DNA of 64,000 nt, taken from positions 558,001-622,000 of the forward strand of contig OX597829.1 in the NCBI GenBank assembly GCA_951406725.2, written 5' to 3'. A program made the translations under genes and the position numbers. The stretch's first letter is position 1, and the number at the start of each line of letters is the position of its first letter. Source of the stretch: Octopus vulgaris (lineage: Eukaryota). Shown one piece after another: positions 6,708 through 61,426 of this stretch. The notes beneath the pieces are model-generated. The model was not told the origin of the DNA. It ran no database searches and was given only the letters and a program-made list of their open reading frames with translations.

Positions 6708-7024
6708 CCTTTGTTACTTGTTTCAGTAGTTGGACTGTAGCCATGCTGGAGCACCGCCTTGGAAAATTTAACCGAACATATCGATCCCGCGCCGGTGCTC
6801 TCTTTACTCTCTCTCTCTCTTTTACTCTTTTACTTGTTTCACTCATTTGACTGCGGCCATGCTGGAACACCGCCTTAAATCGAGCAAATCGAGCCCCAGG
6901 ACTTATTCTTTGTAAGCCTAGTACTTATTCTACCGGTCACTTTTGCCGAACCGCTAAGATACTGGGACGTAAACATACCAGCATCGGTTGTCAAGCAATG
7001 GTGGGGGGGCAAACAGACACACAA

Positions 7025-25420: not shown

Positions 25421-25880
25421 GTATATGTATGCATGTATATATGTATCATGAATGTATGTATAAATGTCTATGTATGTATTATGTATACATGTATTTATGT
25501 CTATGTATATATGTTTGTGTGTATGTATGAATGTCTATATATATGTATGTATGCATATTTGTATGTATGTATGCATGTATATATATATAATGAATGTATG
25601 TATAAATTTCTATGTATGTATTATGTATACATGTATGTATATCTATGTATATATGTTTGTGTGTATGTCTGAATGTCTATATATATATATATATATATAA
25701 TAATAAATATTAGGGAATAAATCCAAAATTACGGGGAAAAAATCAGATTTAGGATTAAATCCAATTTTATAGTAAAATATTATATAATATTAATTCGAGA
25801 CAAAACCACTATTTTGCAAATCAAACAAGGAAAGACTTAATCAATACATAAAAAAATTTTAATATAAAGTAAATAAATCG

Positions 25881-25924
25881 CCACTACAATCGTTTCATGT
25901 CTTCAAATGACAATCGTCAGGTGG
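25881..25924 (-). ncRNA. minimal type-I hammerhead ribozyme motif within an AT-rich PLE-like fragment (~25700-25950)
   Basis: Minus strand: CCAC-CTGACGA-T-TGTC-ATTTGAA-GACA-T-GAAA-C-GATT-G-TA-GTGG; stem I CCAC/GTGG, stem II TGTC/GACA, GUA cleavage triplet. Confidence 0.75.
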
Positions 25925-26184
25925 ATTTCCGATCTTCTATTCAGTTTTAATTTTTATATATATGTATGTATGTTTTCTCTTTCTGTTTTTAATTTAGTGT
26001 AAATTTTGATTGATCACAGTCTTGGTAGCAAGGTTGTGAAGAAAAGTATCAAGATTTAAATGTCATCTTTTAAATCTTTAGAAGGTCTTGTGGATTTCTA
26101 TGCTTCCAGATATCGTGATCATTTGTAGCATTTGAAATAAAGATTTGCATTCTCTTCTCAAGATTCCAAATTCAGCCATACTTT

Positions 26185-31914: not shown

Positions 31915-32002
31915 GCTTACGGCCATATCACATTGAAAGCACCGGTTCTCGTCCGATCACCGAAGTTAAGCAACGTCGAGCCTAATTAGTACTTAGATGT
32001 GT
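31915..32002 (+). pseudogene. 5S rRNA-derived sequence (first ~88 nt), 3' truncated
   Basis: GCTTACGGCCATATCACATTGAAAGCACCGGTTCTCGTCCGATCACCGAAGTTAAGCAACGTCGAGCCTAATTAGTACTTAGATG matches the invertebrate 5S consensus from nt 1; last ~30 nt absent. Confidence 0.9.
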
Positions 32003-32395
32003 GGAAAGAAGCTTGCTTCCCAACCATATGGTTCCGAGTTCAGTCCCACTGCATAGCACGGTGAACAAGTGTCTTCTGCTGTAGCCTCGGGCTGACCAAA
32101 GCCTTGTGAGTGGATTTGGTAGATAGAAACTGAAAGCTCGTCATATATATATGCGTTTGTGTGTGTGTGTGTTTGTGCATATATTTAGGGGTATGTCTTT
32201 GTATCTGTGTCCCGCTTCCATCGCTTGACAACCGATGTCGGTGTGTTTACGTCTCTGTAACATAGCATTTCGGCAAAAGAGACCGATAAAGTAAATACTA
32301 AGCTTACAAAGAATAAGTTCTGGTATTGATTTCTTCGACTAAAAGGCGGTGCTCCAGCATGGTCACAGTCCAGTGACTGAAACAAGTAAAATTAA
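31998..32395 (+). mobile_element. SINE family C body fused to the 5S fragment
   Basis: TGTGTGGAAAGAAGCTTGCTTCCCAACC... to ...GTGACTGAAACAAGTAAAA; lacks the first ~15 nt of the family head. Confidence 0.9.
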
Positions 32396-33545: not shown

Positions 33546-33610
33546 ATTAATATTTTACGAGTAAAAATAAACGAATTAACAAATAACACCGAAATAAGGT
33601 CTACCTTTGT

Positions 33611-36600
33611 CTTAACACTCCATCAATAACCACTCCATCTTAACCACTCCATCTTAACCACTCCATCTTAACCACTCCACTCCATTAACAAATCCACCTT
33701 AACCACTCCATCTTAACCACTCCATCTTAACCACTCCATCCTTAACCACTCCATCTTAACCACTCCATCTTAACCACTCCATCTTAACCACTCCATCAAT
33801 AACCACTCCATCTTAACCACTCCATCTTATCCACTCCATCTTAACCACTCCATCTTAACCACTCCATCTTAACCACTCCATCTTAACCACTCCATCTTAC
33901 CCACTCCATCTTAACCACTCCATCTTAACCACTCCATCTTAACCACTCCATCAATAACCACTCCATCTTAACCACTCCATCAATAACCACTCCCGAAACT
34001 AAGGCTACCTTTGTCTTAACCACTCCATCAATAACCACTCCATCTTAACCACTCCATCTTAACCACTCCATCTTAACCACTCCACTCCATTAACCACTCC
34101 ATCTTAACCACTCCATCAAATCCACTCCATCTTAACCACTCCATCTTAACCACTCCATCTTAACCACTCCATCCATAAATCCATCTTAACCACTCCATCT
34201 TAACCACTCCATCTTAACCACTCCATAAATTAACCACTCCATCTTAACCACTCCATCAATAACCACTCCATCTTAACCACTCCATCTTAACCACTCCATC
34301 TTAACCACTCCATCTTAACCACTCCATCTTAACCACTCCATCTTAACCACTCCATCTTAACCACTCCATCTTAACCACTCCATCTTAACCACTCCATCTT
34401 AACCACTCCATCTTAACCACTCCATCTTAACCACTCCATCTTAACCACTCCATCTCAACCACTCCATCTTAACCACTCCATCTTAACCACTCCATCTTAA
34501 CCACTCCATCTTAACCACTCCATCAATAACCACTCCATCTTAACCACTCCATCTTAACCACTCCATCTTAACCACTCCATCTTAACCACTCCATCTTAAC
34601 CACTCCATCTTAACCACTCCATCAATAACCACTCCATCTTAACCACTCCATCTAACCACTCCATCTTAACCACTCCATCTTAACCACTCCATCTTAACCA
34701 CTCCATCAAACCATCTCCATCTTAACCACTCCATCTAACCACTCCATCTTAACCACTCCATCTAACCACCATCTCCATCCATCTTAACCACTCCATCTTA
34801 ACCACTCCATCTTAACCACTCCATCAAGAACCACTCCATCTTAACCACTCCATCTTAACCACTCCATCTTAACCACTCCATCTTAACCACTCCATCTTAA
34901 CCACTCCATCTTAACCACTCCCATCACTCCATCTTAACCACTCCATCTTAACCACTCCATCTTAACCACTCCATCTTAACCACTCCATCTTAACCACTCC
35001 ATCTTAACCACTCCATCTTAACCACTCCATCAATAACCACTCCATCTTAACCACTCCATCTTAACCACTCCATCTTAACCACTCCATCACCATCTTAACC
35101 ACTCCATCTTAACCACTCCATCCTTAACCACTCCATCTTAACCACTCCATCTTAACCACTCCATAACCACTCCATCTTAACCACTCCATCTTAACCACTC
35201 CATCAATAACCACTCCATCTTAACCACTCCATCTTAACCACTCCATCTTAACCACTCCATCAATAACCACTCCATCTTAACCACTCCATCTTAACCACTC
35301 CATCTTAACCACTCCATCTTAACCACTCCATCTTAACCACTCCTTAACCACTCCATCTTAACCACTCCATCTTAACCACTCATCATCTTAACCACTCCAT
35401 CTTAACCATCAATAACCACTCCATCTAACCACTCCATCTTAACCACTCCATCAATAACCACTCCATCTTAACCACTCCATCAATAACCACTCCATCTTAA
35501 CCACTCCATCATTAACCACTCCATCTTAACCACTCCATCTTAACCACTCCATCTTAACCACTCCATCTTAACCACTCCATCTTAACCACTCCATCTTAAC
35601 CACTCCATCTTAACCACTCCATCTTAACCACTCCATCTTAACCACTCCATCTTAACCACTCCATCATAACCACTCCATCATAACCACTCCATCTTAACCA
35701 CTCCATCAATAACCACTCCATCTTAACCACTCCATCTTAACCACTCCATCAATAACCACTCCATCTTAACCACTCCATCTTAACCACTCCATCTTAACCA
35801 CTCCATCAATAACCACTCCATCTTAACCACTCCATCTTAACCACTCCATCTTAACCACTCCATCTTAACCACTCCATCTTAACCACTCCATCAATAACCA
35901 CTCCATCTTAACCACTCCATCAATAACCACTCCATCTTAACCACTCCATCTTAACCACTCCATCTTAACCACTCCATCAATAACCACTCCATCTTAACCA
36001 CTCCATCTTAACCACTCCATCTTAACCACTCCATCTTAACCACTCCATCAATAACCACTCCATCTTAACCACTCCATCAATAACCACTCCATCTTAACCA
36101 CTCCATCTTAACCACTCCATCTTAACCACTCCATCTTAACCACTCCATCAATAACCACTCCATCTTAACCACTCCATCTTAACCACTCCATCTTAACCAC
36201 TCCATCTTAACCACTCCATCTTAACCACTCCATCAATAACCACTCCATCTTAACCACTCCATCAACCACTCCATCTTAACCACTCCATCTTAACCACTCC
36301 ATCTTAACCACTCCATCTTAACCACTCCATCTTAACCACTCCATCTTAACCACTCCATCTTAACCACTCCATCAATAACCACTCCATCTTAACCACTCCA
36401 TCTTAACCACTCCATCAACCACTCCATCTTAACCACTCCATCTTAACCACTCCATCTTAACCACTCCATCTTAACCACTCCATCTTAACCACTCCATCTT
36501 AATCACTCCATCTTAACCACTCCATCTTAACCACTCCATCTTAACCACTCCATCTTAACCACTCCATCTTAACCACTCCATCTTAACCACTCCATCTTAA

Positions 36601-39404
36601 CCACTCCATCTTAACCACTCCATCTTAACCACTCCATCAATAACCACTCCATCTTAACCACTCCATCTTAACCACTCCATCTTAACCACTCCATCAATAA
36701 CCACTCCATCTTAACCACTCCATCTTAACCACTCCATCTTAACCACTCCATCTTAACCACTCCATCAATAACCACTCCATCTTAACCACTCCATCTTAAC
36801 CACTCCATCAATAACCACTCCATCAATAACCACTCCATCTTAACCACTCCATCTTAACCACTCCATCAATAACCACTCCATCTTAACCACTCCATCTTAA
36901 CCACTCCATCTTAACCACTCCATCTTAACCACTCCATCTTAACCACTCCATCTTAACCACTCCATCTTAACCACTCCATCTTAACCACTCCATCAATAAC
37001 CACTCCATCTTAACCACTCCATCTTAACCACTCCATCAATAACCACTCCATCTTAACCACTCCATCTTAACCACTCCATCTTAACCACTCCATCTTAACC
37101 ACTCCATCTTAACCACTCCATCAATAACCACTCCATCTTAACCACTCCATCTTAACCACTCCATCTTAACCACTCCATCTTAACCACTCCATCTTAACCA
37201 CTCCATCTTAACCACTCCATCTTAACCACTCCATCTTAACCACTCCATCAATAACCACTCCATCTTAACCACTCCATCTTAACCACTCCATCTTAACCAC
37301 TCCATCTTAACCACTCCATCTTAACCACTCCATCTTAACCACTCCATCTAACCACTCCATCTTAACCACTCCATCTTAACCACTCCATCTTAACCACTCC
37401 ATCAATAAACTCCATCTTCCATAACCACTCCATCAATAACCACTCCATCTTAACCACTCCATCTTAACCACTCCATCAATAACCACTCCATCTTAACCAA
37501 TTCCATCAATAACCACTCCATCTTAACCACTCCATCTTAACCATCTCCATCCATTAACCACTCCATCTTAACCACTCCATCTTAACCACTCCATCAATAA
37601 CCACTCCATCTTAACCACTCCATCTTAACCACTCCATCAATAACCACTCCATCTTAACCACTCCATCTTAACCACTCCATCTTAACCACTCCATCTTAAC
37701 CACTCCATCAATAACCACTCCATCTTAACCACTCCATCTTAACCACTCCATCTTACTCCATCTTAACCACTCCATCTTAACCACTCCATCTTAACCACTC
37801 CATCTTAACCACTCCATCTTAACCACTCCATCTTAACCACTCCATAACCACTCCATCTTAACCACTCCATCTTAACCACTCCATCTTAACCACTCCATCT
37901 TAACCACTCCATCAATAACCACTCCATCTTACCACCATCTAACCACTCCATCTTAACCACTCCATCTTAACCACTCCATCTTAACCACTCCATCTTAACC
38001 ACTCCATCTTAACCACTCCATCTTAACCACTCCATCTTAACCACTCCATCAATAACCACTCCATCTTAACCACTCCATCTTAACCACTCCATCTTAACCA
38101 CTCCATCTTAACCACTCCATCTTAACCACTCCATCTTAACCACTCCATCTTAACCACTCCATCAATAACCACTCCATCTTAACCACTCCATCTTAACCAC
38201 TCCATCTTAACCACTCCATCTTAACCACTCCAAACTTAACCACTCCATCTTAACCACTCCATCTTAACCACTCCATCTTAACCACTCCATCTTAACCACT
38301 CCATCAATAACCACTCCATCTTAACCACTCCATCTTAACCACTCCATCAATAACCACTCCATCTTAACCACTCCATCTTAACCACTCCATCTTAACCACT
38401 CCATCTTAACCACTCCATCTTAACCACTCCATCAATAACCACTCCATCTTAACCACTCCATCTTAACCACTCCATCAATAACCACTCCATCTTAACCACT
38501 CCATCTTAACCACTCCATCTTAACCACTCCATCTTAACCACTCCATCTTAACCACTCCATCTTAACCACTCCATCTTAACCACTCCATCTTAACCACTCC
38601 ATCTTAACCACTCCATCTTAACCACTCCATCAATAACCACTCCATCTTAACCACTCCATCAATAACCACTCCATCTTAACCACTCCATCTTAACCACTCC
38701 ATCTTAACCACTCCATCTTAACCACTCCATCTTAACCACTCCATCTTAACCACTCCATCTTAACCACTCCATCTTAACCACTCCATCTTAACCACTCCAT
38801 CTTAACCACTCCATCAATAACCACTCCATCTTAACCACTCCATCTTAACCACTCCATCTAACCACTCCATCTTAACCACTCCATCTTAACCACTCCATCA
38901 ATTAACCACTCCATCTTAACCACTCCATCTTAACCACTCCATCTTAACCACTCCATCTTAACCACTCCATCTTAACCACTCCATCAATAACCACTCCATC
39001 TTAACCACTCCATCAATTAACCACTCCATCTTAACCACTCCATCTTAACCACTCCATCTTAACCACTCCATCTTAACCACTCCATCTTAACCACTCCATC
39101 TTAACCACTCCATCAATAACCACTCCATCTTAACCACTCCATCAATAACCACTCCATCTTAACCACTCCATCTTAACCACTCCATCAATAACCACTCCAT
39201 CTTAACCACTCCATCTTAACCACTCCATCAATAACCACTCCATCTTAACCACTCCATCTTAACCACTCCATCAATAACCACTCCATCTTAACCACTCCAT
39301 CTTAACCACTCCATCAATAACCACTCCATCAATAACCACTCCATCTTAACCACTCCATCTTAACCACTCCATCTTAACCACTCCATCTTAACCACTCCAT
39401 CAAT
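33611..39404. repeat. 14-bp minisatellite (CTTAACCACTCCAT)n, ~5.8 kb, roughly 410 units
   Basis: Homogeneous tandem array with an interspersed 15-bp variant CAATAACCACTCCAT. Confidence 0.98.
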
Positions 39405-40147
39405 AGACTTAGCAGTCATTCCACTGTTTCGTTCCATTTTAAATTAATATCAGTTTAATTTCACAATTATTTCCCCCGTCTCCTTCTCTTTAAGAAAAAA
39501 AATACAATGCATAATTAAGCTAATGATTTATTATCAATCACTACAGTTGTAATTATAGTTGATTAATATTTCTCAATCTGCTGCAATTATCATCACGACA
39601 AACACTACGACCGCTGCCACCATTGTAATGGTCGCTGTTGTCATCGTCATCTATTTCATCATCATCACCATCACTACCACCACCATCATCATCGTCATAA
39701 CTCATCACTCATCATCCATCATCATCATCATCATCATCCAGAACAACAGCAGCAGTATTCAGTTTTGTATTTGGCCGAAACATTAGATCGTTGGAATATG
39801 TTTTGTGATATTTGTTCGGACCACTACCATTTTGAATTAGGTCTGATGTCTTGCAAACAACTTGCACATGCAAGTGCTACCTGTCAAAAACTCCGCATAC
39901 CGGATGAACCCAGCAAGTGTATGGGGTCATCAGGAGAGAATGGGCACCGTTTCGGGGCCTACCTCTCGGCGGCATCAATGCGCAGCAGCTGCCCGCTCCC
40001 CTCACTGATATGAGGCCCCGCTTGCTAGATCATCATCATCATCATCATCACCATCACTACCACCACCATCATCATCGTCATAACTCATCATTCATCATCC
40101 ATCATCATCATCATCATCATCATCATCCACAACAACAGCATCATTTA

Positions 40148-50326: not shown

Positions 50327-50552
50327 AGTTTATAGATTTCCATAATTTATAATATGACTTTTAAAATCTGTATTTTTTATTATTGATTTATATAATATTT
50401 TTGTATGCTTTTGATGTTCTCATTTGTAAAATGAATAAATAATATAACATTATTATATCCGTAAGTTGAGGAACAAACTGAATTTGTTTCTCTATTTTCT
50501 TATTTGTATTATGTATTAAATATTATACATACATATTAACACATTACACTCA

Positions 50553-50991
<439 letters not shown>

Positions 50992-60587: not shown

Positions 60588-60635
<48 letters not shown>

Positions 60636-60640
<5 letters not shown>

Positions 60641-60829
60641 TTATTATATAGAAGGAGCTTCTACAGGACTAGTACTGTTTCATTCAAGAGAAATCTTCAG
60701 AGCTTCCTGAAGATTTCTCTTGAATGAAACAGTATAGTCCTGTAAATCCTTCTATATAATAAATTAATTTTACTCTGCTATGTATTGAGTACCTTACTTA
60801 CTGTGGTTAACCCCGAATCAACCGGGACC

Positions 60830-60832
<3 letters not shown>
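60636..60832 (+). mobile_element. PLE-like foldback element with two inverted hammerhead cores
   Basis: Palindrome at 60639-60763; GAGCTTC-CTGAAGA (60707)-T-TTC-TCTT-GAA-T-GAAA-CAG..CTG-TA. Confidence 0.8.
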
Positions 60833-60884
<52 letters not shown>

Positions 60885-60886
<2 letters not shown>

Positions 60887-61188
60887 AGGCGTAATGGCCT
60901 AGTGGTTAGGGCAGCGGACTCGCGGTCGCAGGATCGCGGTTTCGATTCCCAGACCGGGCGTTGTGTGTGTTTATTGAACGAAAACACCTAAAAGCTCCAC
61001 GGGGCTCCGGCAGGGGGTGGTGATCCCTGCTGTACTCTTTCACCACTCTTTCTCCCACTCTTTCTTCTGTTGGCCTGCTCGCTTAGCCAGCGGGGTGGCG
61101 TTATTCGAAGGCTAAAGCAATGAGAACGCATTGTGACCAGCGATGTGTAACAACATCTGATGGTCTGGTTGGTCACGTGATCACGTGA
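60885..61188 (+). mobile_element. SINE family A, full length, in (TA)n
   Basis: Near-consensus copy; tail TCACGTGA x2. Confidence 0.92.
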
Positions 61189-61426
61189 TATATATATATA
61201 TTTACACATATATATATAAATTAGAGATAAAACCACTATTAGGCAAATCAAATAGTGAAAAATATAAACCAAAACATAAAAATAAAAATAATTAATATAA
61301 TTTACAACTATTTAAATTATTTAAATTTAAAATTATTAATTTGTATTTATATTTATATTTTTTTTATTATATATAACTATCAAAAAGTATTAAAAATGTT
61401 ATTATAAGTAAAACTTACATATATAA

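Follow-up and report, generated by a model that had tools for sequence, protein, structure and literature searches.

Foldback insertions of a Hydra-clade Penelope-like element in the Octopus vulgaris genome and their possible origin from paired cDNAs on a capped RNA

The window we analyzed is a 64,000-nucleotide stretch of DNA (contig OX597829.1, positions 558,001 to 622,000 of the forward strand) from Octopus vulgaris, whose 2.8-Gb genome is rich in TA microsatellites, and at 60636–60832 it carries a foldback flanked on both sides by a (TA)n target. Element positions are numbered with +1 as the first base 3′ of the predicted hammerhead cleavage site, so that stem I begins at −45 (window 60701; position 6789 of locus L169). 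The left side of the target occupies 60600–60635, with a run that starts further left, and is followed by an inverted arm on the minus strand (60636–60700) that covers −39 to about +23 and has one slipped AAAT-type repeat at its outer end. The arm ends in a junction G (60700) that it has in common with the position before stem I, and a direct segment on the plus strand (60701–60832, −45 to +92) then leads to the right side of the target (60833–60884). Within the direct segment are the 5′ strand of hammerhead stem I (60701–60706), the hammerhead core with a 3-bp stem II closed by a U.U pair and a stem III with a near-palindromic loop (60707–60744), a predicted cleavage site after 60744, an AU-rich proximal site where inverted arms end (60758–60764), and a tail of about 70 nt, present in the direct segment only (60764–60832), which ends at a distal site and contains a hairpin at 60772–60790 (ACTC..GAGT here, GCTC..GAGC in relatives).

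An earlier note on this DNA, made from the letters alone, had described a foldback here, and the arm indeed matches 60707–60767 of the opposite strand in 61 of 65 columns (blastn E 6.6e-43 within the window). As that note also had it, CTGAAGA-T-TTC-TCTT-GAA-T-GAAA-CAG..CTG-TA reads outward from the center on both strands, and GAGCTTC (60700–60706) is the reverse complement of the GAAGCTC in the inverted arm and in a copy at 50.9 kb. The latter belongs to a second foldback insertion (50761–50930, minus strand) of the same family and another subfamily, which folds at a different point, about −24/−26 in the stem II region, again as described. Beyond the post-tail (TA)n, both foldbacks adjoin the head of one shared repeat (60885–61190, plus strand; about 50540–50646, minus strand), which we take to resemble a tRNA-derived SINE.

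The two arms had been proposed to complement to a full ribozyme with a 7-bp stem I. The core motif is present on both strands, but as assembled neither strand alone of the 60636–60832 locus has a complete hammerhead: the arm runs no further than −39, and in the direct segment five single bases of an intact copy are missing and the 3′ strand of stem I is damaged. Our first motif descriptor found no whole hammerhead in the window. No reconstruction is needed to see the motif, which in a native copy (L169:6789–6839) has the canonical core CUGANGA / GAAA / UH and three helices, namely a 6-bp stem I, a 3-bp stem II and a 4-bp stem III. Intact copies have T, rarely C or A, before AGCTTC, so G60700 is not native, the native stem I is 6 bp long, and the seventh pair of the earlier reading uses this non-native base.

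We assign this structure to the type I hammerheads by motif and not by model score, with cleavage activity predicted. No Rfam hammerhead is among the 150 listed of 388 window matches or on the native repeat. The designed fold of the L169 hammerhead has a predicted energy of −7.3 kcal/mol, compared with −8.5 kcal/mol for the minimum-energy fold with stems I and III, and the fold z-score of 0.17 is not better than shuffles. In longer RNA, the 3′ strand of stem I is predicted to be engaged in a competing hairpin, and the near-palindromic loop III permits a dimer, with a predicted loop III duplex of −14 to −16 kcal/mol. Hammerheads of Penelope-like elements (PLEs) are weak in vitro, and one requires protein; Lunse reportedly studied dimers in 2017. 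A U.U pair closes stem II in 21 of 45 hammerheads in metagenome relatives of the element and is common in the published Hydra hammerheads, as far as the accessible text of PMC8557442 describes them.

Three other features of the window were recorded. Another Hydra-type hammerhead (CUGACGA, U.U closing) lies on the minus strand at 25840–25960 with TATATAAA 38–40 nt before its core, a layout that is the same as in the family studied here; the cap-G search described below returned no matches for solo copies of its family. A 5S rRNA match above the gathering score (60 bits) lies at 31915–32026 on the plus strand, and a long satellite with a 14-nt period and extreme strand skew (GC skew near −1) extends over about 33600–40000.

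A 26-nt motif from the tail has 4,848 exact matches in the genome and its control has none, which places the foldback far beyond chance. Twenty places run past the tail into a linker, and most of them continue onward to an ATG. In linker-bearing places and in places picked for an in-frame junction between reverse transcriptase (RT) and endonuclease, we find elements of 4.3–5.4 kb from the linker to a 3′ hammerhead, with an RT-endonuclease ORF. The earlier note had suggested a search for a linked RT/GIY-YIG ORF, and one such ORF is intact, encoding 713 aa with RT and, at its C terminus, a GIY-YIG domain (L169:6972–9113) behind a native repeat with the same hammerhead. Its structure model has a pLDDT of 86; telomerase RT ranks first in both structure searches, and the catalytic GIY-YIG domain of I-TevI matches model residues 584–689 (Z 9.8, rmsd 2.5, 89 aligned). 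Pfam alone leaves the protein (P0001) unnamed, and of 24 aligned relatives, two match GIY-YIG and one matches RVT_1. The ORF has DKT at 116 (DKG is absent), CxCx5C at 567, CxxC at 667 and CxH at 695, and its endonuclease is without CCHH and has, by eye, a single Cys between the VY and YIG strands. At 38–40 it has RWR where the Hydra clade has RWK, a conservative change, and R.RW[KR] is present in 98 of 120 relatives. We found 1,116 relatives, the best at 37–52% identity; viral contigs contained none.

The architecture is that of a PLE, with partial-tandem pseudo-LTRs (pLTRs), an inverted 5′-truncated copy and an optional tail (L149, L142, L169 and others), the tail being about 70 nt long compared with the usual 30–40 nt. 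Thus, the PLE-type inverted partial pLTR anticipated from the letters is borne out, both here and in the end mapping of tail-motif loci, and so is the targeting of TA: 8 nt of perfect TA repeat follow 78 of 91 tail ends, and near-perfect TA follows most of the others. We conclude that the foldback is almost certainly a truncated insertion of a young, protein-coding PLE. Judged by its motifs, its C-terminal endonuclease, its (TA)n target and a by-eye likeness to published families, the element is placed in the Hydra clade. Two motif searches of published consensi mark it as a putative separate, new family within this known clade, since the tail and N-terminal motifs have no match in the available part of the Craig et al. 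2021 supplement (PMC8557442).

A programmed frameshift between RT and endonuclease was considered, as 77 of the 100 places listed (of 166) have a C run one base short, and was ruled out. Of six interrupted runs counted by hand, five have the in-frame length and none is short, intact copies exist, and short-read contigs are ungapped there, so we read the short run as homopolymer under-calling. At L149 and L141, about 3 kb of the element, 3′ of the ORF, consists of a mosaic of (TA), (TG) and (TATG) microsatellites interspersed with short islands of unique sequence; this microsatellite-rich region accounts for the length of the elements and means that the element itself spreads the repeats it targets.

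The tail hairpin sits between the two outer ends of the copies (+23 and +92). Its motif follows 41 of 52 cores (L169 included) and none of 39 upstream, compared with 0.66 in shuffles, where the motif was defined post hoc on the same loci and a few false cores were scored as misses. In an alignment of 27 of the 41 motif-selected loci, 96.8% of cells pair over seven pairs, four of which change on both sides, whereas slid pairing controls give 20–62%. The published Hydra consensi in the accessible material show the same hairpin letters by eye. On this alignment and comparison, the hairpin covaries and recurs in related elements of other organisms, and it is presumably bound by the element's protein.

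To map the ends, we used the first 90 tail-motif places listed on C1, one known place aside (91 matches), in which 88 direct segments were mapped. The outer ends are fixed, with the tail ending at +92 before (TA)n and the arms ending at +21 to +27 in 52 of 56 foldbacks, a count from single-reference mapping, which misplaced subfamily variants. At the inner end, by a mapping that misplaces at least L039, 24 of the 88 direct segments are long, and 58 of the 64 short ones end between −46 and −14 with a mode at −45, the other six ending at −54 to −82. The arms do the same, with 50 of 53 ending between −46 and −14 and a mode at −45, and altogether nine short segments (six direct, three arms) pass the predicted start and end upstream of it, at −48 to −82. 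Variable fold points, which had been proposed, are therefore real in that they differ from copy to copy, but rather than being spread out they pile up at or just behind a wall at −45.

The same wall is seen in solo copies across the genome. Among the first 100 of 122 rows listed, at least 92 places abut (TA)n at −44/−45, compared with 1 at −49 to −52, 27 at about −32 and 18 at the cleavage site, where the −49 to −52 window spans just two upstream variants and the control windows differ in their microhomology to (TA)n. From these counts, we conclude that copies meet a wall where stem I begins (−45) and that their ends do not accumulate at the cleavage site. A pile-up of ends that would signal ribozyme activity was looked for and not seen, with 18 places there compared with 27 at the control site. 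Six of 13 ORF-bearing copies with an anchor here also start at −45/−44.

Short forms outnumber long ones, which is what would be expected if a non-autonomous unit of about 200 bp were copied as such, either through a retrozyme-like circle or as a MITE with fixed terminal inverted repeats (TIRs), and the earlier note had proposed a family of minimal elements of this size. However, the same tail and hammerhead end the long ORF-bearing elements, of which an intact copy exists, the centers vary, and ends do not accumulate at the cleavage site. Fixed TIRs, which the earlier note held would count against its own reading, are not seen; the ends are asymmetric, with the tail on one side only, and the fixed terminal repeats and constant interior of a MITE or foldback DNA transposon are absent from the mapped copies. 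Because the centers vary and ORF elements have the same ends, the short forms result from insertion and are not copied as a unit. As for retrozyme tandem units with cleavage-defined monomers, the loci seen include one short trimer with junctions off the cleavage site. At L025:1124–1640, a foldback is followed by a head-to-tail trimer with units of about 150 nt, whose junctions run from the linker to −45/−43, one with an extra G. Such an array could be read in favor of a unit, but the sequence that serves as its linker is the ORF-bearing element's 5′ UTR, with just 20 occurrences; the array may have come from repeated jumps at the RNA start, and it may be the seed of a retrozyme-like array. The reading of a unit copied as such is largely refuted, and we hold it to be very improbable.

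TATAAA starts 29 nt before −45 in 70 of 72 instances across 13 spacer variants (some places counted twice). A distance of about 30 nt is the usual TATA-to-start spacing for RNA polymerase II; the Penelope promoter was reportedly studied by Schostak in 2008. Many solo copies also have an additional base at this position. In 60 solo places among the listed rows, a hand count of the base before an intact AGCTTCC gives 38 G, 8 C, 8 T and 6 A, while none of 45 ends at the control windows (cleavage site and about −32) has an added G (Fisher p 3e-13). This extra G is neither native nor part of the (TA)n target, and G60700 of the foldback stands at the same place. Among the listed rows, 32 further solo places start at −44 or have another base at −45, and at 15 places G-T, G-G or G alone replaces the G-A of the start, as if the cap-adjacent base had been miscopied or starts were heterogeneous. 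A G at −46 is also found in 7 of 7 arms that end at −45 and are not AGCT overlaps, although the partner could supply it in most. Untemplated G is a sign of cap copying in L1 and SVA, according to the available text of PMC4859970. Together, the spacing and the added base suggest that the G at −46 is a copied cap and that the RNA starts at −45.

Relatives of the element give some indication of the same arrangement. Of 45 hammerheads in 78 metagenome loci, 10 have TATAWA at a distance of 30–42 nt 5′ of the core, where shuffles give a mean of 1.2 and a maximum of 6, and the other 35 are without a strict TATAWA in this interval. In two informative loci (L183 and L188), upstream copies start near TATA+31; at L188, the first base of the upstream copy corresponds to a point 31 nt behind TATA in the downstream copy, and this upstream copy has an extra G. 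Against the cap reading, the same G would result if RT added an untemplated C wherever an RNA ends. Against a capped start are the 22 of 60 solo places without G, the segments that pass the wall, and the majority of relatives without a strict TATAWA.

The wall at −45 could instead be some other RNA boundary or an RT stop: the RNA might be processed there or have a splice acceptor, or the RT might pause, and the G might be added by terminal-transferase activity or copied off stem I's mirror strand. In Drosophila virilis, the Penelope intron ends at the 5′ edge of helix I (PMC4209133), the native (T/C/A)AG of our family at −46 to −44 is acceptor-like, and junctions templated by stem I do exist. 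But the 38 solo copies with G have no constant upstream exon in front of it, the TATA spacing is fixed, and no G is added at other break points. Copying from the stem I mirror strand should also give longer steps next to (TA)n, and these are few: of 18 places, 4 have GG/AGG intermediates abutting (TA)n and another 3 have them with a minimal arm. Another boundary of this kind seems to us improbable, and we favor the capped start.

The head-to-head structure itself might arise without a second priming event if one cDNA, or an antisense template, snapped back and copied itself, with the arm then being cut at the AU-rich site or joined there. For rotifer Penelope palindromes, self-priming on an antisense template has been proposed in the accessible text of PMC3846280, and palindromic junctions are the rule in our family as well, with exact AGCT joins in 8 of 90 sampled loci and 29 genome-wide junctions that run through the whole stem I homology. 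However, an arm made by snapping back cannot reach further 5′ than its direct segment, and in four loci (L050, L054, L056 and L105) the arm extends at least 16 nt further, barring later deletion at the center. The arms, too, have the G at −46 as counted above, and the extra G is on the sense 5′ end. We regard self-priming as unlikely, if somewhat less so than another boundary at −45.

It was also considered whether foldbacks are long-read assembly artifacts. One or both of the Gs at +1 and +4 are lost in 14 of 104 foldback segments, mostly arms, compared with 0 of 37 others (p 0.02), and small deletions of this kind, next to the cleavage site, would be expected from read errors in hairpins; slippage of RT at that site is the other explanation. 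Short-read contigs from other samples nevertheless have the same boundaries, with loose ends at −45, +23 and the tail end and one joint with G before −45, and one X16 contig is identical to 60674–60729, across the junction. Thus, the architecture is not an assembly artifact, a possibility to which we give next to no weight.

We consider it probable that foldbacks form when two short cDNAs, started from both ends of a (TA)n break, run off the capped RNA start and are joined head to head. RNA polymerase II would start at −45, so that the first 51 nt of the transcript would be the hammerhead. The element's protein would bind the tail hairpin, cut both strands of (TA)n, and prime internally at two AU-containing sites, +23 and +92, that flank the hairpin. 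Both cDNAs would then run 60–140 nt to the cap, whose copy would be the extra G, and anneal by microhomologies of 1–6 nt, for which stem I's palindromic AGCT would be used most often. At 60636–60832, the direct segment would be the first cDNA, made from the tail end to the predicted RNA start at −45, and the inverted arm a second cDNA, primed at the AU-rich proximal site and ending at −39, with G60700 common to both. The longer copies, about a quarter of the sample, may come from priming in the 3′ repeat copy, from read-through RNA, or from a jump to the 3′ copy once the RNA start is reached, which would resemble the strong-stop transfer of LTR elements. The template would mostly be uncleaved RNA. 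Asymmetric centers could also come from later deletion in the hairpin.

A further reading goes beyond the two-cDNA origin and is offered tentatively, as something rather less likely than not to hold: the pseudo-LTR might be a true U3-R-U5-like LTR, with a TATA-directed start at the hammerhead, a clade-wide hairpin 70 nt on as the loading site for priming at both DNA ends, and foldbacks as paired strong-stop cDNAs with a cap copy. If so, full-length transposition would require the strand to be transferred from cap to 3′ repeat; the ribozyme, for its part, would be a decapping switch on the element's own mRNA and not a maker of templates. In the literature covered, which takes in open-access papers and the Craig supplement in part, neither a cap G nor strong-stop products nor a tail hairpin is described for PLEs. 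How PLE pseudo-LTRs and head-to-head palindromes form, and what the hammerhead does, are posed as open questions in the accessible texts of PMC8557442, PMC11167929 and PMC3846280.

The element itself is ordinary, one more Hydra-clade PLE family, and its value is as a record of mechanism. A young family yields base-exact predictions, with a single start site, a pair of priming sites, a conserved hairpin and an ORF that is naturally intact, and these predictions can separate twin priming on capped sense RNA from antisense self-priming.

In L1, inversions are non-overlapping pieces of one RNA and are primed at the poly(A) end, whereas here both arms duplicate the same stretch and priming would be internal. 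What L1 twin priming shares with the present case, in the available part of PMC4859970, is a 5′ inversion from second-strand priming and an untemplated G at full-length 5′ ends. The remaining comparisons likewise go as far as the accessible portions of the cited papers. The Hydra clade, including Hydra-1_Obim (Craig et al. 2021, PMC8557442), shares the single ORF, DKT, RW(K/R), CxCx5C and C-terminal GIY-YIG, a canonical hammerhead, many with a U.U-closed stem II and ACAG/CTGT in stem III, as well as (TA)n insertion and inverted 5′-truncated copies. Published Hydra elements are mostly shorter than 3 kb, in contrast to the 4.3–5.4 kb of the present family, and have a loop III of 1–3 nt, in contrast to 8 nt here along with the long tail; the start site, the cap G and the tail hairpin do not figure in the portions of that paper at hand. 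In the green anole element Poseidon_Ac (Frangieh et al. 2024, PMC11167929), the tail is delimited by two internal RT starts, and both target strands are cut and extended at an AT-rich target from an uncleaved RNA template, all as we propose here. The Penelope elements of Adineta vaga (Arkhipova et al. 2013, PMC3846280) share head-to-head inverted pLTRs, palindromic junctions, an optional tail and a putative pLTR TATA box; their authors favor antisense self-priming, whereas the present data favor two sense-templated cDNAs that would end at a capped start. Finally, metazoan non-LTR retrozymes (Li, Clavereau and Pollet 2026, 10.64898/2026.07.22.740005; PMC7229834) share the type I hammerhead, a PLE origin and many short non-coding copies, but they differ in that the family described here has no cleavage-bounded tandem unit and its short copies are by-products of a coding element.
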